A program made the translations under genes and the position numbers. Positions 1 through 37,277 of a stretch of DNA of 37,277 bases are shown piece after piece. The stretch's first letter is position 1; the number at the start of each line of letters is the position of its first letter. The stretch is from IMG/VR virus record IMGVR_UViG_2711768166_000003. One strand, written 5' to 3'. The notes beneath the pieces were generated by a model. That model was not told the origin of the DNA and ran no database searches. It saw only the letters and a program-made list of their open reading frames with translations. This stretch comes from a virus (taxonomy: Duplodnaviria; Heunggongvirae; Uroviricota; Caudoviricetes).

Positions 1-341
1 GGCGTCACACCCGAAGAGACAATTACTTCTGGAACCCCATTGAGATGCTGGTAAAAGCGTTGGAACCACAATTCCAGATTCATACCATTGGCGAGAATCA
101 GTTGTGCCCCCTGCGCACGTTTAATATCGCCAGGGGTAGGCTGATACTCATGAATTTCTGCACCAGGCTTGGTTATGGATGAGACTTCTGCAGCATCTCC
201 CGCCACGTTTTTGGCCATATCCGCGATGATGGTAAATGTTGTAATGACCTTAAATTTTTCAGTTGCACTTGCCTGAAATGCGATCGAGCAGGTGAGTGCG
301 AGGCCCCCCAAGAGCATGGTTACTTTTTTTATTGAGCGCAT
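1..341 (-). CDS. sitA: Mn/Fe ABC transporter periplasmic substrate-binding protein SitA, N-terminal part (gene continues beyond window start)
   Basis: Reverse-strand translation from ATG at 339-341 reads MRSIKKVTMLLGGLALTCSIAFQASATEKFKVITTFTIIADMAKNVAGDAAEVSSITKPGAEIHEYQPTPGDIKRAQGAQLILANGMNLELWFQRFYQHLNGVPEVIVSSGVTP; signal peptide then conserved SitA/MntC-type N-terminus. Not in the ORF track because it runs off the window edge. Confidence 0.8.
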   Translation of the reverse strand, partial: MRSIKKVTMLLGGLALTCSIAFQASATEKFKVITTFTIIADMAKNVAGDAAEVSSITKPGAEIHEYQPTPGDIKRAQGAQLILANGMNLELWFQRFYQHLNGVPEVIVSSGVT

Positions 342-373
342 AATTTAGTACCTATAGTGAGCAAAATTAGAAC

Positions 374-395
374 AAACATAGCAACGGCTATGTTT
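374..395. promoter_or_regulatory. MntR-box-like perfect inverted repeat in the sitA upstream region
   Basis: AAACATAGC-aacg-GCTATGTTT, a 9-bp perfect inverted repeat with 4-bp spacer; matches the recalled MntR operator consensus found upstream of mntH/sitA. Confidence 0.6.
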
Positions 396-417
396 TATAG
401 CATAACCTATACAGAAT

Positions 418-436
418 GAAAATGATTATCATTAAC
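418..436. promoter_or_regulatory. Fur-box-like site in the sitA upstream region
   Basis: GAAAATGATTATCATTAAC matches the 19-bp Fur consensus GATAATGATAATCATTATC at 16 of 19 positions; palindromic core AATGAT-T-ATCATT. Confidence 0.5.
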
Positions 437-534
437 ATCTTTGAGGCCCAAAACAGGGATTAGTTTGTTTCCTGCTGGATGAAAGGACTCTTGGGATAGC
501 ACATGCCGCACGAAGAGCAGCATTACATGATGTT

Positions 535-774
535 TTGTCGAATGAGCTACGAATCCTGATAGAAATACGAAACAAGCTAGCACATGGACAATGGATCTAT
601 CCCTTCAATAATGAAGGAAATACTGTTGACCCTGATAAATATAAATTAATCAATAAAGAAAACTTGCAGTCACTCCAATTCAAATATTCATTAGCACAGC
701 ATTTAGTTGACGCTGTACATGATTTGGTTGTAAGTCCTACGACATTCGAACGAGATTTCGAAAGCCATTTTTAA
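535..774 (+). pseudogene. Short ORF with HEPN-like R-x4-H motif, possible remnant of an Abi-type HEPN protein
   Basis: 79-aa ORF in AT-rich DNA; contains EIRNKLAHGQW (R-x4-H plus flanking residues typical of HEPN active sites). Too short for a full HEPN protein; no clear RBS. Confidence 0.3.
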
Positions 775-1256
775 AAATTATATCAAGTACGAACAAACTT
801 AGTGACAAAAGACTACGAAAAATATAAAACAATTTTAGTATTAAGTAGAGAGAAATTTCGTTCTGCTAGGACGCAGCAATAGGTTCATGAGATTCTCTGA
901 TACTTGTTACCTTAGTAAGCCTTAAATTTTTAAAAATTCTTTTACGTCCACTCCTCGCTCATAACAGGCATTAACTACATTTATCTTCATTGGCTATGCA
1001 AGTCGTAATAAAAGGTGGGACAAAACTGAGACACATAAGCTCTCACAAAGGTCTGCAAGGCCTCACATGTATTGAGATGTTAATAAAATGTAGACTTGTA
1101 ATTTTGATATAAATGGTAGATAAAACCTTTCCCCAAAATAAAAACGAACGTCAATGAAATCAAATGGTTGAATAAAGTTGATTTTGGCTAATAAAAAAAC
1201 AATAAAATAATTTTTATTATTAAATATCAATGACTTAAACTTAATGTTTTTATATA

Positions 1257-1421
1257 CTGCTGCGCCATATGGGCTGGACTGAAGCTGCAGACCTGATTGT
1301 TAAAGGTATGGAAGGCGCAATCAATGCCAAGACCGTAACCTATGACTTCGAACGTCTGATGGAAGGCGCTAAACTGCTGAAATGTTCAGAGTTTGGTGAT
1401 GCGATCATCAAGAACATGTAA
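1257..1421 (+). pseudogene. icd: Isocitrate dehydrogenase 3'-terminal fragment (icdC-like), prophage attachment junction
   Basis: In-frame translation [54 protein letters not shown] matches the Icd C-terminus with a few substitutions; similarity starts abruptly at about 1257 with unrelated AT-rich DNA upstream, so no intact icd precedes it. Confidence 0.85.
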
Positions 1422-1444
1422 TTACTACATATGTTAAATATTGT

Positions 1445-1476
1445 AACGGGCGTATAACACGTCCGTTATTTTTTGT
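1445..1476 (+). terminator. Rho-independent terminator following the icd 3' fragment
   Basis: Stem AACGGGCGT / ACGTCCGTT (one mismatch) followed by ATTTTTTGTT. Confidence 0.55.
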
Positions 1477-1490
1477 TAGCCTGCTAACGG

Positions 1491-1523
1491 TTATCAAAAT
1501 TTTATCAAAACAAGTTATCAAAA
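1491..1523. repeat. Three direct copies of TTATCAAAA next to the att junction (candidate integrase arm-type or accessory-protein sites)
   Basis: TTATCAAAA at 1491-1499, 1502-1510 and 1515-1523. Confidence 0.5.
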
Positions 1524-1763
1524 CCCTTGGTAGTTGGCGGTGAGAGGGGGGGGGTTAAGCGCGTTAGTTTTTCATTACGAATTTCTCTGCTTTTCATGAT
1601 TAATGTTGGTGGATGCTTGCTAATATTTAGGCCTGTGTTGTGCCAGAAGCAGAAGTTGCCAGCATTAAATTGATGGGGTAATAAAATATGGTTTGTTGTT
1701 TGAAATTCTAATGGATTCAATTAATTAGGTTTTAATGTTTGACTAGCTCACAAGTATAATTAT

Positions 1764-3347
1764 TTGTTATTCAAAGGAACAAGACAATTGAACACTTTCA
1801 TATTCAGAAATAATGATGAAATCGGGAAGTTAGAGGCAGAATCAGACAATTACTTAGACTCATGTTTTTTAGAGACAAACATATTCAAAGGTATTATGAA
1901 CTTTGATCCATCTGAGAAAAATCCAGATTTTACGAAAAGAATCATCGTTGGAAGAACTGGTAGCGGAAAGTCAGCGATTTTAAGGAAGATTATCGACGAA
2001 GAAAGCATAAAGTTTTCTGATAAGATTGAAGCAGAAAACACTATTTTTGAACATGTTAAAAACAATGTCTTTATTTCATCCCTAAATGATAGTGGAATTG
2101 ACTTGAGAGTTTTTTATAAGTCTTTATGGTTACATGCGCTACTAATAAAAGTCATTCCAGCCTTACATCGGTCAACTTATCAAAGCTTTTTTAATAAAAT
2201 TCAAGACTTAATTGGTGGGAAAAAGAAGTCATATAATCCAGAGTTGGCAAATGAATATATCGAACAATTTAAGGACGTATTTTTTAATGACAAGGCTTTA
2301 GTGGAAATAAGCAACAAAATGCAGAGTGAATTATCTTCTAAGATAGGTATAAAAGGTATAGATCTTGGAGGTAAACTTGGTCGCGAAGACACTCAGAAAG
2401 TGCAGTCTGAAACATCCAGTTATGTAAGCAGAGAGTTAATCAGAAAACAAAAGGAATTAATAAAAATATTAAATGAAGAGTTTTCTGAAGTTGGACAGTT
2501 TAGGATAGTTATAAGCATTGATGATCTTGATCGTTCTTGGCTGAGCTCTAGCGATATAAGATATGATTTTATAAATGCACTATTAGAAGCATTTAGGGAG
2601 TTACTTGACGTCAAGTCAGTTAAAATATTAATTTCGATTAGAACTGATATACTAATGGGTATTTACAATAAAACATTAAGGCAAGATGAGAAGGACCAGT
2701 CTCTTATTTATCCTGTATCTTGGAATAAATCAGAGATCCGAGAAATAATTGACATGCGTATTAATCACTTAATTAAAAATAAATATCAAAGCTCTCGCAC
2801 TATTACAATGAAAGATATTTTCAATTTTGAAATTGATAACGTATATGCAGATGATTATATTTTAGACAGAACAATGTTAAGACCTAGAGATGCAATAAGT
2901 TTTGTAAATTATTGCTTAAAGGAGTGTGATGGGCACGTAAGTATTAATCAAGATATAGTTTTAATGGCAGAAGAGAAGTTTTTTTCTTCTAGGAAAAGAG
3001 CATTGGTGTCGGAATGGGGAACTATTTACAAAAATATTTCAGGTTACATAGACGCCTTATCTTTGTTGGAAAAACATGAATTTTCATTAGAATCAATTGG
3101 AGACGATAATAAAAATGACATTCTAACTTATATTCTTGATAGAGTTCCATCAGATATCGAAGATGATTTACACTCCAAAATAGTAATGAACTTTGATGAA
3201 TTAATAAAAGTATGGTTTATTGTTGGAATTATAGGGATAAAGAGGACTGAAACCTTAATAATATACTCTTCATATGATAAACCCGATCTTGATATCACTG
3301 ATATCAAACGCAACTTCGTCATTCATCCTTTGTTTAATAGAAGATGA
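1764..3347 (+). CDS. AT-rich cargo P-loop NTPase, KAP-like (Walker A GRTGSGKS, Walker B VISIDDLDR); candidate defence ATPase
   Basis: 527-aa ORF; Walker A near residue 63 and hhhhDDLDR Walker B near residue 250 (long A-to-B spacing as in KAP NTPases), further ISIRTD and LRPRDA motifs. Sits between att and int. Start uncertain: track start is TTG at 1764; first in-frame ATG is at 1896; a TATAAT hexamer lies at 1755-1760. Confidence 0.7.
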   Translation: MLFKGTRQLNTFIFRNNDEIGKLEAESDNYLDSCFLETNIFKGIMNFDPSEKNPDFTKRIIVGRTGSGKSAILRKIIDEESIKFSDKIEAENTIFEHVKNNVFISSLNDSGIDLRVFYKSLWLHALLIKVIPALHRSTYQSFFNKIQDLIGGKKKSYNPELANEYIEQFKDVFFNDKALVEISNKMQSELSSKIGIKGIDLGGKLGREDTQKVQSETSSYVSRELIRKQKELIKILNEEFSEVGQFRIVISIDDLDRSWLSSSDIRYDFINALLEAFRELLDVKSVKILISIRTDILMGIYNKTLRQDEKDQSLIYPVSWNKSEIREIIDMRINHLIKNKYQSSRTITMKDIFNFEIDNVYADDYILDRTMLRPRDAISFVNYCLKECDGHVSINQDIVLMAEEKFFSSRKRALVSEWGTIYKNISGYIDALSLLEKHEFSLESIGDDNKNDILTYILDRVPSDIEDDLHSKIVMNFDELIKVWFIVGIIGIKRTETLIIYSSYDKPDLDITDIKRNFVIHPLFNRR

Positions 3348-3477
3348 TATCTAAGGTATGATCTTAGTATAAACCTAGTTAAAATTATTAAGGCACATCC
3401 CTCGCTTAAACCAAATTGTTTGACTCTTTTTCATGAGTGGTGAGAAATTCAAGGTAGCGTTGAAAATATTAGATTTT

Positions 3478-4605
3478 TTACCACGCTACCTTGCTCCATC
3501 CTTTGCCTCGATCGTCATGATAACGATCGGTTTGTTGTTGCGTTTTATGGCCAAGTAGTTTTTGTGTGTCTACCCCCTGTTCTTTGTACAGACGTTCAGA
3601 TAAAGACCTTTGTTCATGGAATGTTGCTGGTGAGCCATTACCCCAGTCAATTTCTGCCAAATCTCTCGCTCTACTAAAATTCGTCGTCAATGTATTGGAT
3701 TTAACCTGCGCGCCACGTTCAGCCTGTGAAGTGGTACGAAAAAAATGCACAAGGTATGGGCTGACTGCATAGTCACGGCAGCGGGCGACTACATCGCGTA
3801 AACTCCAGTTAATTGCATTGAGGCGAAGGGAAAGCGGGATGGCGATTTTGCTCCCGGTTTTTTCTTGGATGACGTGAAGATGATCATCCCAAATATCGCT
3901 AAATTTCATTTTGGATATATCTCCCAAACGCTGCCCAGTGACCAAAGCTAGGAGCATGGCATTTCCCATGTAACGATGACTGGCGTCTGCTATATCGAAT
4001 ATTTTTTGCCATTCTTCCAGGCTGAGGCGTTGACGGGTAATTTTTCTTTTGGGTTGCTTCGTCGCAAGAGCAGGGTTATACCCTGGCGGAACTTCGCCAT
4101 AATGCTGTGCTTCCTTAAACACATCGATCAATACAGACCTAACGACTTGGGCCATTCTAGGCTGTCCAGCTGCAATATACTCATCAAGCAATTGTGCTAT
4201 ATCTCTAACATCAACGGATGAGATCAACTTCATTCCTGCTCGTTCTCTGAGCAAGGATACTGGTTTAGCTTTTTGCTTATAGGTGTTGAGTCTTATATCA
4301 CCACTTTTGAGCCTGTCATCCTGGATCGCTTGATAGCGATCTAACCAGGTTGACGTTGTGATCGCTTTTCCTTTGCTGGTTGCGATCCTATCACTGATAG
4401 CTAGAATCTGCCGGGTTCTTTGCTCAGCCAGACGAGTGTTAGCTTCAGTGGCAATAGCAATAGCTTCAGCTTCATTTGTGCCCAACGAATGAAATTTCCC
4501 GGTCACTGGATGCTTATATCGCCAATAGACTTTATTTACTTTTCTACTATAAAGCGGATACAAGTTAGGTACTGAAACATTATTTTTACGTGGTCTGGCT
4601 GCCAT
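3478..4605 (-). CDS. int: Phage integrase, tyrosine recombinase
   Basis: 375 aa; conserved catalytic elements TGQRLGD (Arg), HEQRSLSERLY (H-x-x-R) and C-terminal TDRYHD (Tyr); adjacent to att and excisionase. Confidence 0.95.
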   Translation of the reverse strand: MAARPRKNNVSVPNLYPLYSRKVNKVYWRYKHPVTGKFHSLGTNEAEAIAIATEANTRLAEQRTRQILAISDRIATSKGKAITTSTWLDRYQAIQDDRLKSGDIRLNTYKQKAKPVSLLRERAGMKLISSVDVRDIAQLLDEYIAAGQPRMAQVVRSVLIDVFKEAQHYGEVPPGYNPALATKQPKRKITRQRLSLEEWQKIFDIADASHRYMGNAMLLALVTGQRLGDISKMKFSDIWDDHLHVIQEKTGSKIAIPLSLRLNAINWSLRDVVARCRDYAVSPYLVHFFRTTSQAERGAQVKSNTLTTNFSRARDLAEIDWGNGSPATFHEQRSLSERLYKEQGVDTQKLLGHKTQQQTDRYHDDRGKGWSKVAW

Positions 4606-4846
4606 TGCTTAAAATCCTTTGCAGAATAATAGAATCACTTTTCTTGATTACTGGAGTAACTAATTCCCCAACTAACTCTGCGTCCTCACGTACTCGCCAG
4701 AGTCGACCTTGTTTCATTGCTGGTGGACAAAATAAATTCTGCTTAGCATAACGACGCAATGTGGACACACTTGGAGGATTACTCCTAAATTTTTCCGCAG
4801 CCCATTCCTCAAGTGTCAGCATTTGAAGCATTTTTGATAACCTCAT
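4586..4846 (-). CDS. xis: Excisionase (Xis)
   Basis: Small protein immediately upstream of and overlapping int; MLTLEEWAAEK...PSVSTLRRYAK...GRLWRVRED is typical of phage excisionase-type DNA-binding proteins. True start may be the internal Met at 4831, which has a GAGG RBS. Confidence 0.8.
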   Translation of the reverse strand: MRLSKMLQMLTLEEWAAEKFRSNPPSVSTLRRYAKQNLFCPPAMKQGRLWRVREDAELVGELVTPVIKKSDSIILQRILSNGSQTT

Positions 4847-4886
4847 TTCTTTTGCTACAAAACTATTTCACTAGTTAATTTCGCTG

Positions 4887-5423
4887 TCAGGATTGCTTAT
4901 GTATCTTATGCAGCTCTTTAAAACGTTCCATAAATATCTCGTAGGCATGGCCAGGAGCCAGAGGAACAACTTCGAACATCTCTGTTGCCGGGATACCTTC
5001 CAATACTGGCCAGAAAGAGCCATCATCAAGCCCGAGATCGCGGCGTTCGGTTGCCAGCATGATGAGATCGGCATATTTCACGGGCGTGCTCATAGCCTGA
5101 GGTAACCCGTATTTCTCACGGATTACGGCGTCTATTTTTTCTTCCATCCGTTTATAGTCAGGAAGAAGGCGTTTCAGTGCTGCGGGGATGTCCTGGCAAT
5201 ACGCTTCTGTTGCATCATGCATTAATGCTTCAAAAGCAAATTCCTGCGGTACCAGCATGCTGCAAAGCACCGCATGTTGGGCGACGCTATAGAAGTGTGA
5301 AAGGTGTCCTGCAAAGCGGCAGATATTTGAAAGGGAAACCGCGATATCGTTAATAACGATGTCGTCTTTATTTATCTTGTCATAATAAAAATGCTTCCCA
5401 GAAAAAGTTTTAATAAATGACAT
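4887..5423 (-). CDS. HD-domain phosphohydrolase (YfdR-like 5'-deoxynucleotidase)
   Basis: H...HD metal-binding signature (SVAQHAVL ... LMHDATEAY); start set at the Met preceded by GGAGAA RBS (MSFIKTFSGKH...), 178 aa. Confidence 0.8.
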   Translation of the reverse strand: MSFIKTFSGKHFYYDKINKDDIVINDIAVSLSNICRFAGHLSHFYSVAQHAVLCSMLVPQEFAFEALMHDATEAYCQDIPAALKRLLPDYKRMEEKIDAVIREKYGLPQAMSTPVKYADLIMLATERRDLGLDDGSFWPVLEGIPATEMFEVVPLAPGHAYEIFMERFKELHKIHKQS

Positions 5424-5551
5424 TTTGTTCTCCACGTTATATGCGCTGCACCGCGCTGAATTTTGGTTAAAGAAAACCCTCGCCATCAGGCGATTATTGA
5501 GTCAATTACGTTTCCATAAATGCCCCCGCAGGGGCATTTGCAGTAATGAAA

Positions 5552-6376
5552 TCAGGCGGTGAAAGTACCAATAAAGGTTTCTACTTTGCTGTCTTTGAAT
5601 TTATCAACAAGCAGATCACGAAATTCGTTAGCCATTTCCTCCTGCACTGCTTCCAGCTGAATAATGCGTAGTACCAGTACAGGACGATCGCCAGTGATAA
5701 TGCTGAGGCGTAATTTAAACGGACGTTCTTTCAGGCCTTCAAACGGAACGCATTTAAATTCAAATGCCACTGGCATAATGTCTTTGGTCTTCGCTTCGAC
5801 AGACTCCATCAGGGAGCGTTTGCCGCTGAAGTCATTGTCTTCAAAATCAGCAGTCTGGTTCGCTTCAATTGTGATTTTACGGATCGCCGCAGCCGCTTTG
5901 GTTGCCTGAATGGCGTCACCATTAGCATCAAAGCCCACAAGGTAGTCGGCCCAGTCTTCAATCCATTCTGCCAGTGACTTCTGGGAGTTACGCTCGCCGT
6001 TAACAGACAACAGTGCAGAGAACGGTGCTGTCTTTTTCAGTTTGAGAGTGGCGGTATTATCTGCGTGACCTGGTTCATCAATAGTACCCAGGTTAAGAAC
6101 ACTGACGGCACGCATATTATCGGCATCGATAAAGCAGCGGGTGCCTTCATCTGCAAGATCTTTAGAATAACGGGTAAAGTCATCGATGCAGGCAGTGGAA
6201 AGCGCGCCACGGAAACGGAAGCGATTTAAATTAAATTTTTCCAGATCATGAATGCGGAAATTTTCAGGTAATGCCACTGCGTCGGCACCAATCTTACTGA
6301 TAATTTCATTAACACCCTGAGCAGAAATAAGGGCATGGATTTGATTAATTGCGGTTGCGTCTAAGTTCTGAGACAT
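5552..6376 (-). CDS. Conserved prophage protein (YfdQ-like, DUF2303-type)
   Basis: 274-aa ORF co-oriented with the flanking early genes; size and order (120 aa, 274 aa, 178 aa) match the yfdP-yfdQ-yfdR prophage gene trio as I recall it. Confidence 0.7.
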
Positions 6377-6441
6377 AATAAGTCCTCACTATATAAAGAT
6401 ATTCAGTGATGAGGTAAATAATCAGTTAATTAAGAACGATA

Positions 6442-6804
6442 TTAATGACCTGCTGCGCGGAGTTTTCCGTCAGGCTCACCGGCAAGAGTCAGTAATTGTC
6501 CCTGGTCTTCCTGCAGAATAGTCAGGCGCCCACCGCGATTGACATACATCGGCGTTTCGGTGGTGTCTTCTTCGGAAATTTTCCCGCGGTTAGTCGGGCG
6601 AACATATGAGAGTTTGTGTTTGATTTTCACACGGTTCTCATCAAATGGTTCGATTTCCAGGTTGAGTGAGACCTTACCTTTGGTTTTCGTGTTCATCACA
6701 CCGGAAGCGACTTCACTGAGAACTGCGCCGATTTTGGTTTCAAATACGCCGCCGTCCAGCTCCCCGATAAATGCCTGCACATCAGTACCGCGTTCGCTAG
6801 CCAT
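6442..6804 (-). CDS. Conserved prophage protein (YfdP-like)
   Basis: Start chosen at the internal Met preceded by GAGGAG RBS (MASERGTDVQAF...), 120 aa; the longer track ORF to 7032 is rejected. Confidence 0.6.
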   Translation of the reverse strand: MASERGTDVQAFIGELDGGVFETKIGAVLSEVASGVMNTKTKGKVSLNLEIEPFDENRVKIKHKLSYVRPTNRGKISEEDTTETPMYVNRGGRLTILQEDQGQLLTLAGEPDGKLRAAGH

Positions 6805-7083
6805 TTTGCTGCTCCTCATCATATCGACCCTGCAAGGTCGGTTGGTTTCTCCACAAAACAGAGAAGAACACCTGCGGTGGCAGCCGCCCGGATGGATTGG
6901 GTTATGAGCCCGTCGTCCGGTGATGCTCTTCTCTGTTTTGTAAAAAGAGCGGTACCAGCCGGAAGCAAGGGTACAAACTGGTACCGCCAGGACTACACAC
7001 AGCAATGAAACTATTGCCTGTCTTTTCACCACTTCAGGCTCGGTGGTATGCTGGAGTTCTCACACAGCCAGCAAGGAAACCTA

Positions 7084-7425
7084 ATGAACCAGTTTTATGT
7101 TCACGTTCGTCTGTTTGAAGCAACAGCCGAACAGACCAAAAAATTTGAAGAATTAATGCTTAACTTTCTGTACCAGAAAACAATCAAAGAGTCTGACGAT
7201 AGCTGCTGCAGACTGATTCCAGAGGGATATATCCTCAAAAGCACAATGAACTGCCAACAAATCCTTGATCAAACTTTTTCCATTGCTAACAGTGCTGGTG
7301 TTGACGCAAATATATTTGTCTGCAAATTTGAACAAAGCGCATGCTTACTTCCGTCTGCTTCCTTAGTTGGCAACGATTTTGTTCATCACGATCTTACGCC
7401 TAAGCCCATCAAGCTCGATTCTTAA
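7084..7425 (+). CDS. Hypothetical prophage protein (e14 YmfI-like by size and position)
   Basis: Start at the Met preceded by AAGGAA RBS (MNQFYVHVRLFEA...), 113 aa; its 3' end overlaps the convergent ORF 7363..7671. Confidence 0.5.
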   Translation: MNQFYVHVRLFEATAEQTKKFEELMLNFLYQKTIKESDDSCCRLIPEGYILKSTMNCQQILDQTFSIANSAGVDANIFVCKFEQSACLLPSASLVGNDFVHHDLTPKPIKLDS

Positions 7426-7671
7426 TGCCTTAACCATTGTGTCGTGATAAACACGGCTCACCCTCTCTCCATTGCATGGCAGTGGGGTGATCGTGTTAGC
7501 CATGAAATTCATGAACTTGGTTCGATCAGGGTCTTGCGCCTCGCAAGTCTTTAATGCCTGTTTTGCTAACAAAATACGGGCCTCAGTGCCTGCATTTGGC
7601 TCTATCTGCTGCAAACGTTTAGCGTCTTCCAGCAACAATGCGATCACATGCTTCAAATCCTGCTCATTCAT
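7363..7671 (-). CDS. Hypothetical prophage protein, first gene of the leftward early operon (e14 YmfJ-like by size and position)
   Basis: 102 aa; GGAGAG RBS 7 nt upstream of ATG; lies directly downstream of the OL/pL-like operator pair. Confidence 0.55.
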   Translation of the reverse strand: MNEQDLKHVIALLLEDAKRLQQIEPNAGTEARILLAKQALKTCEAQDPDRTKFMNFMANTITPLPCNGERVSRVYHDTMVKALRIELDGLRRKIVMNKIVAN

Positions 7672-7858
7672 CTATTCTCTCCACTGAAATCATCCGCTAA
7701 CGAATCATCCTGGACTTCATATGCCCCAGGCTGTTACTTCGTGGGCGTCCTGCCTGTTCGTTTTTGACATTTACTGACCGCTTACGACACATGCACCGTT
7801 TTGCAACCAGATTTTGTTGTAATCCTGTAGTTGGTCTGGAACAAAAGATAAAATTAAA

Positions 7859-7894
7859 TTGCGAGATATGCAAGTAATATTGCGATATATGCAA
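7859..7894. promoter_or_regulatory. OL-like operator pair (two 15-bp TTGCG-N5-TGCAA sites) with candidate leftward promoter
   Basis: TTGCGAGATATGCAA (7859-7873) and TTGCGATATATGCAA (7880-7894), centres 21 bp apart; on the minus strand TTGCAT and TATCTT hexamers with 17-bp spacing overlap the sites. Confidence 0.5.
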
Positions 7895-7905
7895 AATGAT
7901 GGGTA

Positions 7906-7928
7906 ATAAAAAGCCACCTTTCGGTGGC
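7906..7928 (-). terminator. Rho-independent terminator downstream of the repressor gene
   Basis: Minus strand GCCACC-GAAA-GGTGGC followed by TTTTT, between the CI stop (7949) and the OL sites. Confidence 0.6.
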
Positions 7929-7948
7929 CGATGGATGGGATATTGAGG

Positions 7949-8641
7949 TTAATTATGTCTCTTAAGGGTTTGCGACTGACTGATTAAGACCTTTCCAAAG
8001 ACCATGAATCGGTGTTCGTTTTCGCTAGTAATTCCCCATTCACGGTAAATCTGGTTATCAGAAATCACCAGCAGTTTGTCAGGAATCATTTGAAGTCTTT
8101 TAACGTATATTTTGTCATCAAAACCAAAGACATATATACCATCACCATCAAACTGATTGATGCTGACATCAACGAAGATGAGATCTCCTGGCTCAATGGT
8201 TGGACACATACTGTCCCCACGAACGTTGATAACTTTGATGTGATTGGCTGGTCGTCCGCCGAACATTGATACAGCATTATCAGTTCTGTATTCGATGGCA
8301 TGAATCACATCAATGACATCACCGCCCTGGATAAGGCCATTTCCCGCACTGGCACTGATATCCAGCATTTCAATACGGAACACATCCTTCACCTGCGCAA
8401 CATCCTCATTATTACTGTTTTTATATACAGTATTACTTTTGAGGGCAGAGGTAAAGAGATCAGCAATATCAACACCTAAGCTCTTGGCAATATTACTCAG
8501 TGTTTGTTCGGTAAATTGTTTTTGCTTACCCGTTTCTAAGCGCGAGATGTTCGCCGCATCTACTCCTATTGCTTCAGCGAGATCGGCGATTTTCATGTTC
8601 TTCGCTTGGCGAAGTTGTCTGACTCGGTTTCCTATGTTCAT
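7949..8641 (-). CDS. CI-type prophage repressor (N-terminal HTH, C-terminal S24 LexA-like peptidase domain)
   Basis: 230 aa; N-terminal XRE-type HTH (KIADLAEAIGVDAANISRLETGK), C-terminal S24 motifs (GDSMCPTI ... KRL); divergent from cro. Confidence 0.9.
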   Translation of the reverse strand: MNIGNRVRQLRQAKNMKIADLAEAIGVDAANISRLETGKQKQFTEQTLSNIAKSLGVDIADLFTSALKSNTVYKNSNNEDVAQVKDVFRIEMLDISASAGNGLIQGGDVIDVIHAIEYRTDNAVSMFGGRPANHIKVINVRGDSMCPTIEPGDLIFVDVSINQFDGDGIYVFGFDDKIYVKRLQMIPDKLLVISDNQIYREWGITSENEHRFMVFGKVLISQSQTLKRHN

Positions 8642-8654
8642 GCGTTTATTACAT

Positions 8655-8725
8655 TTCTTTATTGCGTGATAAGCAAATCAACTTGCGCAAAATAATTGCG
8701 TGAAATAACATGCATAACGCGCAAT
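8655..8725. promoter_or_regulatory. OR-like operator/promoter region between cI and cro
   Basis: TTGCGTGATAAGCAA (8662-8676), which fits the TTGCG-N5-(A/T)GCAA pattern of the OL sites, plus further TTGCG / CGCAA half-sites (TTGCGCAA 8683-8690, TTGCGTG 8696-8702, CGCGCAA 8717-8723). Confidence 0.5.
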
Positions 8726-8738
8726 ATTTGGAGGGTAT

Positions 8739-8999
8739 ATGCAATCACCATTACGAAATGTGCGTAAGGCGCATGGTTTCACTTTGCAGCATGTTGCTGC
8801 GGGTGTTCAAGTCAATCCAGCGACGTTGAGTCGTATTGAGAGGCTGGAGCAGATTCCATCTATCGAGCTTGCAGAACGTTTAGCCAATTTTTTTAAGGGT
8901 GAAGTCAGCGAAATGCAGATTCTTTATCCGGCACGTTTTCAATCTAGCCAAAATCAGAATGGGTTTAAACCACAGGAACAGGAGGTGAACCGTGGGTAA
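8739..8999 (+). CDS. Cro-like HTH transcriptional regulator
   Basis: 86 aa, XRE-type HTH (HGFTLQHVAAGVQVNPATLSRIERLEQ); GGAGGG RBS; divergent from the repressor. Confidence 0.8.
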   Translation: MQSPLRNVRKAHGFTLQHVAAGVQVNPATLSRIERLEQIPSIELAERLANFFKGEVSEMQILYPARFQSSQNQNGFKPQEQEVNRG

Positions 9000-9549
9000 G
9001 CATCACTGGAAAATAGAAAAACAGCCTGAGTGGTACGTGAAAGCTGTCAGAAAAACTATCGCGGCGTTGCCGGGTGGTTACGCTGAAGCGGCTGACTGGC
9101 TCGATGTAACAGAAAACGCTTTATTCAACCGCCTTCGTGCAGATGGCGATCAGATTTTCCCGCTGGGATGGGCAATGGTTTTACAGCGTGCTGGTGGCAC
9201 TCACTTCATTGCTGATGCTGTGGCGCAGTCTGCAAATGGCGTCTTTGTGTCTCTTCCTGACGTCGAGGATGTGGACAACGCCGATATTAACCAGCGTCTG
9301 CTGGAAGTCATTGAACAGATCGGCAGTTATTCAAAACAGATTCGTTCAGCAATCGAAGACGGTGTAGTGGAACCGCATGAGAAGACAGCAATTAACGACG
9401 AGCTGTATCTCTCAATTTCGAAGCTGCAGGAGCATGCAGCACTTGTCTACAAAATTTTTTGCATTTCAGAAAGTAATGACGCCCGCGAGTGTGCAGCTCC
9501 GGGCGTCGTGGCGTCGATTGCTTCTGGTTGTGGAGAAACTAACGCATGA
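8992..9549 (+). CDS. Phage regulatory protein (CII-like / e14 YmfL-like)
   Basis: 185 aa; GTG start preceded by AGGAGG; position right after cro. Confidence 0.65.
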
Positions 9550-14519: not shown

Positions 14520-14876
14520 ATGCGTGATATGTATGAAGTAATGGATCGTTGGGGAGCTTGGGCTGCTTCAGACAATAGCGGAGTGGACTGGCAGCCGATA
14601 GCGGCTGGTTTCAAGGGACTTTTACCTCATGGCAAAAAGTCACGGATTCAGTGTGATGATGACGAAGGCATCATGATAGACAGTTGTGTGGCTCGGTTGA
14701 GAAGGTATAAACCAGAGGAATATGAGCTCATCATCGCCCACTTTGTTATCGGTATCTCATTACGCACTATTGCGAAGAAGAGAAAATGCTCTGATGGCAC
14801 AATTAGGAAGGAACTGCAAACTGCAATGGGGTTTGTTGATGGCTGTTTAGCAATGTTAGCTTATAGTATGGCATAA
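14520..14876 (+). CDS. Late-gene antiterminator Q (QuuD-type)
   Basis: MRDMYEVMDRWGAWAA ... IAAGFKGL ... SRIQCDDDEG ... CSDGTIRKELQTAMGFVDG parallels the recalled QuuD-family sequence; start at ATG 14520 after a GGAGAAAG RBS. Confidence 0.85.
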   Translation: MRDMYEVMDRWGAWAASDNSGVDWQPIAAGFKGLLPHGKKSRIQCDDDEGIMIDSCVARLRRYKPEEYELIIAHFVIGISLRTIAKKRKCSDGTIRKELQTAMGFVDGCLAMLAYSMA

Positions 14877-16070
14877 AAAATAAAATAGATTTACTGCCGA
14901 TTTTTCAAAAAAGACTGGGAACTGTTTATATCCAACGTAAATAAGGCCTCCATAAAACATGGCTGATGCGAGATATTTAACAGTTCTCATCCTTTTTTTA
15001 GCTTTATCAATCAAACCTGTAATGCTACTCTTAATACTATCTGCATTATCTTTGATTTCTTTATTTTCTTCAAACTTTAAATACTTATCGAAAGCGGACT
15101 CCACTCGAGAACGTAAGTTGTCGAATGTTTCATTGAATATCTCAATAGAAATGTAATTGACTTTTTTTATCATCCAAAGTCCTGCGATAATCAATATTGC
15201 TTCGGTTGTTTCATTAGCCTTCACTAAGCCACCAGCTGCTATTAATGCACCGGGAATAGTCAATGCTTTTGTCTGATTAGATGATATGAATTCGTTAATT
15301 TTACTCGTGAACTCAAGATTTTTCTCATCGAGTTCGTTAAGAATTTTATTTACAGAAAACCTCTTTGTGTAAATCTCATATAGTTCATCATATTTTTTCC
15401 TGACGAGTTCAGTAGAGTTAAGCAAGTCAAAGAAATTGAACGTACCATTTGCTTTAAATACTTCGTTTATGGCTGAGCGTATAACGAGCTTGCGCTCGCT
15501 TTTGTGTAAATCATTGATTTTTATTGTGTCGAGAAGCTCCTTTACAATTTCATATTTAAGAGACGAGTTCGATAAGCGATTAATCTCGCTATATTGTAAA
15601 AAATGCGTGAGTTCGACTGTATAACTTTTGTCTTCATTGGTGAAAAATAAGACAGAGCAGTCACTGTTATGATGATCAGAAATTAATGAAAGGATATCTT
15701 TCCACATAAAGAAAATATGGATTTTTTCGATGCTTTCATTCTTAGAAGTAGGGAGTATTAACGGCGTTCCGATGATATAATTTTTCGGAAGAGCGTTTTG
15801 GGTGTTTACTCTAGACCAAAAAGACTCAACATTCTCATAAATTATAGCATCATCCCAAGATGAAGCTTGGCGATCTAGCCAAATTTCATTATTTTCGATG
15901 CAGGTTGTTGCCTTTTTATAACCTATAGATTGTAACAGTCTAATTATTTCAGAACTATTTACAATAACAATGCTTTCTTCAAGACTTATGACAGTGTAGT
16001 AGCCCTCAACTCTGCTTGAGGCTCCGTTAATAATCTGCGCTAATCTTGATAAGTCATCAGCAATTGTCAT
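14856..16070 (-). CDS. AT-rich cargo gene B: protein with predicted C-terminal transmembrane helices (candidate effector)
   Basis: 404 aa; hydrophobic segments ALTIPGALIAAGGLV, AILIIAGLWMI and YLASAMFYGGLIYVGY in the last third; start ATG 2 nt after the stop of gene A; 3' end overlaps the Q gene convergently by 21 bp. Confidence 0.75.
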   Translation of the reverse strand: MTIADDLSRLAQIINGASSRVEGYYTVISLEESIVIVNSSEIIRLLQSIGYKKATTCIENNEIWLDRQASSWDDAIIYENVESFWSRVNTQNALPKNYIIGTPLILPTSKNESIEKIHIFFMWKDILSLISDHHNSDCSVLFFTNEDKSYTVELTHFLQYSEINRLSNSSLKYEIVKELLDTIKINDLHKSERKLVIRSAINEVFKANGTFNFFDLLNSTELVRKKYDELYEIYTKRFSVNKILNELDEKNLEFTSKINEFISSNQTKALTIPGALIAAGGLVKANETTEAILIIAGLWMIKKVNYISIEIFNETFDNLRSRVESAFDKYLKFEENKEIKDNADSIKSSITGLIDKAKKRMRTVKYLASAMFYGGLIYVGYKQFPVFFEKSAVNLFYFLCHTIS

Positions 16071-16072
16071 TA

Positions 16073-17248
16073 TTAGCTGTCTCTATATCTTTTGAGTTCA
16101 TCATAATTTGCCTGACTCAATTTTATCACAATTTCGCATTTGTTGTCAGTGAGAATTACAGGCTTATTTGACTTTTCGTCTCCAATAGCTCCACGCATTA
16201 TTTTCAACTTAAAATTATTGTCGTTATCTGCCACTTCAATTGTAAGCGCGCTTTCAGCTGCTTTAGGAGTTGGTTCAAATTGAGGGTCAATCTGGAAACC
16301 ATTAAGATTAACAAAATCGACAAACGTTCCCTTACATTTGTGTGAATCAGTCAGGCATGAGTCAATTATTTTTGAAATATCCTCTATCTTAACGGACTTA
16401 TTTCCGTGTTTATCTTTTGATTTTTTTTCCAGTAAGGATTTAACTTCATTGTCAATAGTATCACGCAGTACACGACCGAGTGAGTTTTTACTAGCAAAAA
16501 TATCTATAGCACTGAATAATTGCTGAATGCTTCTTTTATTGTCCGAATCATGTCGGCAACCTAATGAGTCTTTGAAAAAATCGCTTTTAGATTTACCTTG
16601 CAAGAAATGTACATATGAGTCACCCTTGTTTTCTGGATAACTGGCTTCGAATAAAGTTAAATCGAACATCGCAGCCTGCCGTAAGGCATCGGTATTAATT
16701 GGATTTAATCTTGTTGGGGTCAACTTATCCGAATCAAAGTCATAGGCGCTTTGTTTATCAACCATTACGATTAGAAGTTTCCCCAAATCCTCTGGTTCGG
16801 TAGACTTATAGTGGATGAAAACAACGCTCCCCCCCTGAAGTTGGGCAACTCTCGATTCGTTATTAGCATTATGTTTAAGCTTCTCTATTATAGCTCTAGA
16901 TAAATCAATGAATTCATTATTTTTATTAATGTATTTTTTTAGGATCGTAGGAATGGATGAAGGGTTGTGATCTGAGTCTAGGAAGTTATGAAATTTGTTT
17001 TTTCGGCTAAATTTTTTCTCAATTCTGGTTATGAATTCAGATGTGACTTCATTTTTTAGATCCCAAACTTCACCTAATCGATAATCAAATGCTCTTGAAT
17101 CATTTTTTTCAAGATTTGCTGTTACAGCACCAATAGGAAAGTACGATTGTTTGCCCAGCACTACAACATGAGGCGTGGCACCGCATTTATCGCAAGCTAC
17201 AGTTGGGTCGTCAAGAACATTGCCACATTCTAAACAAGTTATATCCAT
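16073..17248 (-). CDS. AT-rich cargo gene A: N-terminal zinc ribbon plus NA37/YejK-like nucleoid-associated domain
   Basis: 391 aa; N-terminal CLECG-x12-CDKCG; central region aligns by eye to YejK (GGSVVFIHY vs GGFVLFCHY; ...DLT...FL.GK...). Family assignment is from memory, not a search. Confidence 0.7.
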   Translation of the reverse strand: MDITCLECGNVLDDPTVACDKCGATPHVVVLGKQSYFPIGAVTANLEKNDSRAFDYRLGEVWDLKNEVTSEFITRIEKKFSRKNKFHNFLDSDHNPSSIPTILKKYINKNNEFIDLSRAIIEKLKHNANNESRVAQLQGGSVVFIHYKSTEPEDLGKLLIVMVDKQSAYDFDSDKLTPTRLNPINTDALRQAAMFDLTLFEASYPENKGDSYVHFLQGKSKSDFFKDSLGCRHDSDNKRSIQQLFSAIDIFASKNSLGRVLRDTIDNEVKSLLEKKSKDKHGNKSVKIEDISKIIDSCLTDSHKCKGTFVDFVNLNGFQIDPQFEPTPKAAESALTIEVADNDNNFKLKIMRGAIGDEKSNKPVILTDNKCEIVIKLSQANYDELKRYRDS

Positions 17249-18838: not shown

Positions 18839-19129
18839 TTATGAGCAATACACCCGCGCTTCCAGCGGAGTATAAATGCCTAAAGTAATAAAACCGAGCA
18901 ATCCATTTACGAATGTTTGCTGGGTTTCTGTTTTAACAACATTTTCTGCGCCGCCACAAATTTTGGCTGCATCAACAGTTTTCTGCTGTCCAATTCCCGA
19001 AACGAAGAAATGATGGGTGATGGTTTCCTTTGGTGTTACTGCTGTCGGTTTGTTTCCAACAGTAAACGTCTGTTGAGCACATCCTGTAATAAGCATTGCC
19101 AGAGCGGCAGAAAACAACATTTTTTTCAT
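18839..19129 (-). CDS. bor: Bor lipoprotein (serum-resistance-associated)
   Basis: MKKMLFSAALAMLITGCAQQTFTV ... ETITHHFFVSGIGQQKTVDAAKICGGAENVVKTETQQTFVNGLLGFITLGIYTPLEARVYCS closely matches lambda Bor; start at the lipoprotein-signal Met, not the longer track ORF. Confidence 0.9.
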   Translation of the reverse strand: MKKMLFSAALAMLITGCAQQTFTVGNKPTAVTPKETITHHFFVSGIGQQKTVDAAKICGGAENVVKTETQQTFVNGLLGFITLGIYTPLEARVYCS

Positions 19130-19653
19130 CTTATTATCCTGCATTGTTAAAAACGGCAGAATCCTATGTGACAACAATTAAACGATAGTTAAATGGATTG
19201 ATGAAAATTAAAACTATATAGGTGTACGGTCAGACTATTGGAGGTAGTCAGGATTTGAATGTCAGTCTGTTGTCGGCATTCTGGCAATGCAATTTGGATA
19301 AAGCGGGGATTAAAAAGATAGAAGCGAGCCGGTCAGGTAGAAATGAATCAGGCTCAAAGTGAAGCGGAAAAGGTCTGTGGCACAAACTGATGCTGCCATA
19401 ATTACAGCCTGATGACTTGTGGAATGAAACATGTTGAACTTCCTTAATTGATGTGATTCGAGTGAGGAAGGCATTCTGTCCCTCTATAGTGTCCATTAAT
19501 TCAAACGGGAAATTTGTCTCATGCGTGAGACAAGTCTCTCCATTAGTGAGTTGTATTGATTGCGACTCTTCAAAGAATCCATTACTGCGTTGATGAAAAA
19601 GGTTTACTACGAATGAAGGCAGCTATTTCGCTGGTTTCTTCATTGGAGTACAT

Positions 19654-36980: not shown

Positions 36981-37277
36981 ATGCATCGTATAGACACGAA
37001 AACCGCGCAGAAGGATAAGTTCGGCGCGGGTAAGAACGGTTTTACCCGTGGTAACCCCCAGACCGGCACGCCTGCCACCGATCTGGATGATGACTACTTT
37101 GACATGTTGCAGGAAGAGCTCTGCAGCGTGGTGGAGGCATCCGGTGCCAGCCTGGAGAAGGGGCGGCATGACCAGCTGCTTACCGCGCTTCGTGCGCTGC
37201 TGTTAAGTCGCAAAAATCCGTTTGGCGATATCAAATCGGACGGCACGGTGAAAACGGCTCTTCAAAACCTTGGTTTG
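36981..37277 (+). CDS. Side tail fibre protein, N-terminal part (continues beyond window end)
   Basis: ATG 36981 after GGAG; N-terminus [47 protein letters not shown] typical of enterobacterial prophage tail fibre proteins. Confidence 0.6.

Follow-up and report, generated by a model that had tools for sequence, protein, structure and literature searches.

The locus raises the question of how the 3' end of icd came to lie in phage DNA, detached from the rest of the gene. The stretch of DNA analyzed (37,277 nucleotides, referred to here as the window) contains a 216-bp copy of the Escherichia coli icd 3' end at positions 1258..1473, as delimited by alignment to icd loci. The homology opens at 1258 with the bases TGCTGCGCCA; base 1257 is C, against A in icd. 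The copy comprises 2 nt of a Met codon, 53 icd codons (1260..1418) and the stop codon (1419..1421). This pseudogene fragment (1258..1421, + strand) is also recorded, as an incomplete pseudogene, in the PGAP annotation of strain MS1657. The preliminary description had placed the last ~54 codons of icd and a terminator from 1257 onward; both are present, with the start shifted to 1258 and the coding portion corrected to 53 codons plus 2 nt and the stop. The sequence reads an in-frame TAA at 1242..1244, and thus no icd body lies upstream of the fragment. Beyond the stop codon the homology to icd loci runs on to 1473, and the icd intrinsic terminator (1443..1475, + strand) is located inside this homology as an 11-bp stem (1443..1469) with a T-run after it; its folding energy is -15.1 kcal/mol. 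The pattern CTGCGCCATATGGGCTGGACTGAAGC was found once in the whole window, and no second icd copy was found within its 37,277 nt. The only hit of an Rfam scan of positions 1..6000 was a partial STnc150 match (1436..1511, - strand) over the icd terminator and the first arm repeats, which was dismissed because its 27.4 bits (E = 0.007) fall below the gathering score of 60. No C0293-like sRNA was found in the same scan.

The DNA to the left of the fragment is assigned to a phage-21-type prophage carrying sit and iss (prophage A). The window begins within sitA, the 5' part of which (1..341, - strand) was identified by its match to strain A13 as the last cargo gene of prophage A ('PAI-icd'). Positions 1..1300 are 99.7% identical to strain A13, and positions 1..1473 match the right end of its sit prophage at 99% identity, the homology to the window breaking off at 1473. 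The gene order in A13 is sitDCBA, the icd fragment, and the chromosomal ycgX-bluR. The stretch at 1000..1257 has a GC content of 27%, compared with 50% across the whole window. The region upstream of the fragment had been described as unrelated AT-rich DNA together with the sitA locus; the base composition and sitA hold, but the DNA is not unrelated, since positions 977..1472 align collinearly, at 92% identity, with the attP of free phage 21 (OL657228.1, 27053..27548). This collinearity identifies positions 977..1257 (+ strand) as the prophage A P arm, belonging to an attP of the phage 21 type. The interval from sitA to this arm holds a variable cassette (479..976, unstranded) of ~0.5 kb, which is common to the window and A13, has no blast match in the MS1657 locus, and contains a 79-aa ORF (535..774, + strand) for which no Pfam match was found. 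MS1657 and HH97 have at this position an unrelated stretch of ~1.5 kb with a 771-bp hypothetical gene (WP_000567449.1).

The DNA to the right of the fragment is assigned to a relative of e14 (prophage B). Past 1473, the homology to strain A42 and to K-12 e14 continues, and positions 1474..1535 (+ strand, right end approximate) are identified as the P' arm of the e14-type attP of prophage B by their collinearity with K-12 e14 directly downstream of icd. Positions 1258..3500 are 99.8% identical to A42, in which this stretch directly follows the intact icd and is continued by a P-loop ATPase gene, intE and xisE. A G9 homopolymer run (GAGAGGGGGGGGGTTAAG, 1539..1547) is located just past the arm repeats described below, near the end of the K-12 e14 similarity. 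The tyrosine integrase of prophage B (3478..4605, - strand) shares 96% identity with K-12 IntE and 60% with phage 21 Int; it has a PF09003 arm-DNA-binding domain in residues 1-73 (E = 2e-37) and also matches PF00589. An excisionase of the XisE type (PF07825) is encoded at 4586..4831 (- strand). Homologues of xisE, ymfI, ymfL, ymfR and ymfQ are annotated in the near-identical prophage of MS1657 and A42. The IntE/XisE-type module at icd and the e14 genes mark the right-hand element as an e14-type prophage, apparently a complete relative of e14 of ~40 kb. The window ends at 37,277 within its tail/baseplate genes.

A cargo gene of prophage B (1764..3347, + strand) lies between attL and int and encodes a KAP-family (Sll1717-type) P-loop NTPase (PF07693, E = 1.7e-6) of 527 aa with a GC content of 31%; the annotated lengths are 427 aa in MS1657 and 519 aa in A42. 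The variant of prophage B carrying this gene is present in 3 of 5,426 complete genomes (MS1657, VTB96929v and A42 only). The slot between attL and int looks like a swappable cargo or defence slot. The same position is taken in e14 by ymfD, ymfE and the gene for the Lit abortive-infection protease. PADLOC gave no matches for the KAP NTPase or for both large minus-strand genes at 14856..17248. These two oppositely oriented genes encode a hypothetical protein of 404 aa and a protein of 391 aa that is annotated in MS1657 as a 'nucleoid-associated protein', and they are inserted in prophage B with the Q antiterminator on one side and the holin on the other, a moron-like position. An ORF at 18839..19177 (- strand) is at the position equivalent to the annotated iss of MS1657 prophage B (L004 7080..7373). 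In MS1657 this gene for a serum-survival lipoprotein adjoins the lysis cassette, and a second iss is located on the 21-type prophage, which also carries sit. With iss on each prophage, a tandem strain would hold two iss copies and sitABCD at one locus.

The full layout was read from relatives, since the window itself reaches only from sitA into the tail genes of prophage B. A tandem layout is present in the two closest complete genomes, MS1657 and VTB96929v, which are both of chicken origin; MS1657, the closer of the two, is from chicken heart. In MS1657, rluE and the intact icd are followed by a 21-type sit/iss prophage of 51 kb, icd', an e14-like prophage of 40.6 kb, icd'', ycgX and bluR. 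The left prophage consists of int interrupted by IS2, xis, a lambdoid genome, iss, and sitDCBA at its end; the IS2 in its int should leave this element grounded. The right prophage consists of the P-loop ATPase gene, int, xis, e14-like genes with a contractile tail, and a DUF262 gene at its end. Three co-oriented TGCTGCGCCA cores are present in MS1657 at spacings of 51,272 and 40,568 bp, of which the window holds the middle copy only. By this spacing a third icd copy would lie ~4.5 kb past the end of the window; the attR of prophage B is accordingly outside the window, which has no second icd copy. Each element also occurs alone, prophage A in A13 and HH97, and prophage B beside an intact icd in A42.

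The frequency of the junction was determined among 5,426 complete E. coli genomes with window positions 1050..1640 as the query and a coverage of at least 80%. The hybrid junction was found in four (MS1657, VTB96929v and two engineered K-12 records). A synthetic junction composed of the e14-type P arm, the core and the 21-type P' arm served as the query for the reverse order and was fully covered in four other genomes (DAM, ANT, VTB97584v and H22); the order in H22 is the DUF262 gene, icd', 21-type int and xis. Both orders occur naturally and both are rare. Up to four icd 3' places were observed in at least one complete E. coli genome, which would mean three tandem elements at icd.

The reading proposed here, to which a probability of about 90% is given, is that the fragment is the middle of three direct icd 3' copies bounding two tandem prophages at the phage 21/e14 site. 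The preliminary description had likewise suggested an internal att copy between tandem elements integrated at icd, with a sit-carrying element to the left and a prophage to the right; that layout is visible in MS1657 and VTB96929v, where the intact icd and the further icd 3' copies that it proposed to look for are also present, and the two single occupants are those of A13 and A42. It had in addition regarded the detachment of the icd 3' end as telling in itself. This does not stand, because every icd prophage leaves such an end at its attR, as does icdC in K-12; the copy is marked as an internal junction by the P' arm and int of a second element that follow it, instead of ycgX. A rearranged junction, offered earlier as an alternative, was dismissed, since both flanks stop or start exactly at the limits of the att homology. 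As judged from the alignments, the probable hybrid site has the P arm of prophage A as its left flank and the P' arm and int of prophage B as its right flank, and each flank is also found without the other.

The crossover point is located in the first 10 bp of identity (1258..1267, + strand, TGCTGCGCCA) by two datasets. In evolved K-12 populations, excision of e14 was reported to leave icd with the icdC allele from position 1196220 onward (PMC13626634). K-12 position 1196210 aligns with window position 1258, and hence 1196220 corresponds to 1268. In the engineered K-12 record NZ_CP174267.1, the newly formed icd end shows, from 1268 onward, the haplotype of phage 21, and the middle icd copy retains that of e14 over the same stretch. 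Both integrase types exchange strands within TGCTGCGCCA, to the left of 1268. The alignment to icd that had been suggested for defining the crossover core gave a homology starting at 1258, and the DNA from 1268 rightward should be prophage B's own copy. The record NZ_CP174267.1 is listed in RefSeq as 'K-12 MG1655' and carries an engineered insert, including luxR, between icd and e14 (4768..9483 of the extracted locus); its e14 intE is also interrupted by IS3. The insert is bounded by phage-21-type att arms and recreates the hybrid junction of a phage 21 P arm and an e14 P' arm.

Three direct repeats of TTATCAAAA, noticed earlier just downstream of the fragment, are confirmed at 1491..1499, 1502..1510 and 1515..1523 (+ strand). 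The whole window contains four exact copies of the motif against 0.44 expected, and none of 100 shuffles reached four. Their positions were compared among eight att copies, with the first base of the homology taken as coordinate 0. The e14-type P' arms of the window, MS1657, A42 and K-12 each have TTATCAAAA at +233, +244 and +257, and the e14-type P arms (attR copies of MS1657 and K-12) have one TTATCAAAA at -127/-128. The 21-type copies carry a different motif, CCCCAAAA: it lies at +233, +245 and +258 on the P' arm of MS1657 attL, and once, at -127, on the P arm of the window, MS1657 and A13. In the window this single copy occupies 1131..1138 and is the core of a dodecamer, CTTTCCCCAAAA (1127..1138, + strand), that fits the consensus YYTTCCCCAAAA. 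The phage 21 record OL657228.1 annotates its three repeats as 'attP ... 3 subsites P1P2P3; consensus YYTTCCCCAAAA', and the e14-type repeats are at the same offsets as these annotated arm sites (YYTTCCCCAAAA x3). At the internal junction, a single arm site of the 21 type (P arm) and three of the e14 type (P' arm) consequently lie on either side of the shared core. The outer P-arm dodecamer and the final P' repeat together delimit ~397 bp, in agreement with the minimal phage 21 attP, which Wang et al. in 1997 reportedly placed between 366 and 418 bp and found to be bounded by repeated dodecamers. The same authors are said to have assigned the repeated dodecamers as arm recognition sites, relevant to the specificity of 21 versus e14.

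The motif varies with the integrase and the geometry is conserved, as expected of arm-type sites and not of host-factor sites. The earlier suggestion that the repeats are integrase arm-type or accessory-factor sites is thus favoured in its first form: the phage 21 positions, the copy on the far arm, the co-variation of motif and integrase, and the PF09003 domain support TTATCAAAA as a putative integrase arm-type binding site. It is regarded as quite unlikely that the repeats instead bind an accessory factor (IHF, Xis or Fis), or that they are an AT-rich repetition arising by chance. The first repeat together with its neighbour reads TATCAAAATTTTA and does fit the IHF consensus WATCAANNNNTTR, but the pattern fits the first repeat only. 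The different motif of 21-type elements at the same three offsets and at -127 follows the integrase and not the host factors, such repeats are annotated as attP subsites in the phage 21 record, and the Int of prophage B carries the lambda arm-binding domain; the assignment attributed above to Wang et al. reportedly points the same way. The fourth exact TTATCAAAA of the window (4832..4840, - strand) is directly upstream of the annotated xis start codon. MS1657 and A42 have it too, but K-12 e14 lacks it at the corresponding point; the copy may be fortuitous or an Int-binding site near the start of xis.

The proposed mechanism is as follows. Each attP would bring a substitute icd end of ~216 bp, and icd would remain intact after integration owing to this phage-borne replacement; the fragment in the window would be the replacement end brought by prophage B. 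A42, MS1657 and engineered K-12 share one Icd protein (WP_000444487.1), and thus the replacement ends of the 21 type and the B type encode the same C-terminus. The site in the window would double as the attR of the 21-type prophage and the attL of the e14-type prophage, with the DNA to the left of 1258 as the 21-type P arm and the DNA from 1268 rightward as the e14-type phage copy and its P' arm. The N-terminal domain of the e14-type integrase would bind the three TTATCAAAA sites of the P' arm, where the 21-type element would use CCCCAAAA. As the arms differ, each Int/Xis pair should excise its own prophage only. By recombining the junction with the distal copy, Int and Xis of prophage B would excise B, and prophage A would then end in sitA-icd'-ycgX as it does in A13; those of prophage A, acting on the icd copy and the junction, would remove A and fuse icd to the DNA from 1268 onward, as in A42. 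Either excision would leave an intact icd and an ordinary single-prophage junction. Joint excision of A and B by either integrase would not be expected, the arm sites being different. Loss of one or both elements could also come about through RecA-dependent recombination between the 216-bp repeats.

RecA-dependent homologous recombination might also have built the same structure in place of an integrase, for example by one crossover of transduced DNA inside the 216-bp icd repeat and a second one further downstream in the chromosome. Two observations are in keeping with such a route. The four SNPs between the window and A42 cluster in 1268..1328, as would be left by a crossover or conversion tract ending in the repeat, and the icd 3' copies are mosaic across strains, as seen in the SNP table. 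Against it, the right ends of prophage A in the window and MS1657 differ, yet the two sequences are identical from ~1247 rightward, and a divergence that ends at the att core is what site-specific events predict. Both elements, moreover, encode matching Int and Xis and have full arm-site sets, and engineered K-12 shows an integrase-mediated insertion giving exactly such a junction. Construction by RecA is on these grounds judged unlikely. Much less probable still is an assembly artefact in which two icd-linked prophage ends were mis-joined via the shared repeat: a 216-bp repeat in two to three copies per genome can mis-join short-read assemblies, and the window lacks its own flanks, but the same junction is present in two complete chromosomes and the reverse-order junction in four others, and the three-copy layout of MS1657 is consistent, with the correct flanks rluE-icd and ycgX-bluR.

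With site-specific integration of two prophages retained as the preferred reading, the SNPs between the window and A42 need a further explanation. All four are located within 61 bp (1268..1328) and the rest is identical over ~2.2 kb (1258..3500). A model in which everything to the right of the core is phage-borne does not predict them, and a recombination or gene-conversion patch in one lineage is therefore invoked. The window is identical to MS1657 from ~1247 (~11 bp to the left of the att core) rightward, as against 92% identity between the 21-type P arms of the two and unrelated DNA in the cassette (479..976). The simplest reading is that the haplotype of the window and MS1657 is phage-borne, that icd of A42 took a host-allele conversion tract, and that B was paired with A in two A backgrounds. 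The sole free-phage relative, vB_EcoM-689R6, was considered as a test of the origin of the SNP patch and rejected as too divergent. It is tentatively suggested that the pairing of an e14-like phage with a 21-type sit prophage may have arisen independently on two or more occasions. If this were true, an occupied icd would stay a fully competent target, with either the functional icd or the displaced fragment as attB, and double lysogeny at icd would recur, perhaps under selection, in avian pathogenic E. coli.

icd is the classic attachment site for phage 21 and e14. Sharing of the icd attB by the two was reportedly described by Hill, Gray and Brody in 1989 (J Bacteriol 171:4083), and adjacent 21 and e14 prophages in K-12 are said to have been studied by Wang et al. 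in 1997 (J Bacteriol 179:5705). The locus in the window has in common with 21 and e14 in K-12 the icd attB, a phage-borne icd replacement of ~210 bp, two integrase types, the motifs CCCCAAAA (21) and TTATCAAAA (e14), and the hybrid middle site with the 21 P arm and the e14 P' arm that is present in engineered K-12. It differs in that the 21-type element is natural and carries sit and iss, and in that the relative of e14 is full-length (~40 kb) with a KAP NTPase as cargo, whereas K-12 e14 is a 15-kb remnant with ymfD, ymfE and lit. The attP of phage lambda has arm-type sites P'1-P'3 and P1/P2. The arrangement here resembles it in the three close direct repeats on the int-proximal arm, the repeat(s) on the other arm, and the N-terminal arm-binding domain of the integrase. 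The motif differs, and the lambda repeats lie within ~60 bp of the crossover, as against ~235-265 bp here, because the icd 3' end and terminator lie between.

The icdC pseudogene of K-12 MG1655 is likewise a detached icd 3' end (165 bp), with the same orientation and mechanism, and excision of e14 recombines the icd and icdC copies (PMC13626634). icdC is a terminal attR followed by the chromosomal iraM/ycgX, whereas the copy in the window is followed by the P' arm and int of another prophage. PAI-icd with Iss and Sit has been catalogued for many ExPEC, APEC and AIEC strains (PMC7545054), and the AIEC strain NC101 carries the lambdoid prophage NC-SV in icd, at the attachment site of phage 21 (PMC12803456). 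Both correspond to the left element of the window, as lambdoid prophages at icd with sitABCD at the right end by an icd fragment; they are described as single occupants, whereas in the window a second prophage follows. Tandem arrays of genomic islands with three related att sites have been resolved by TIGER/Islander (PMC10111431). The same logic applies to these arrays, in which an internal att copy separates two independently integrated elements, although they concern fis and tRNA genes and satellites, and the window concerns two full prophages in a protein-coding gene.

Tandem occupancy of icd by 21 and e14, and PAI-icd itself, are already established, and the finding is thus one of a known arrangement, whose mechanism can be understood from homologous systems that have been studied in depth. 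It consists of a natural sit/iss prophage of the 21 type and a full-length relative of e14 with a KAP NTPase cargo gene. For annotation, the fragment is of value as the boundary between two mobile elements, and the pseudogene should be labelled as a hybrid attR/attL; since it separates two elements, the ~92 kb that follow icd are not to be described as a single island. The locus is a natural illustration of two integrases with different arm-site specificities that share one attB and leave icd intact.
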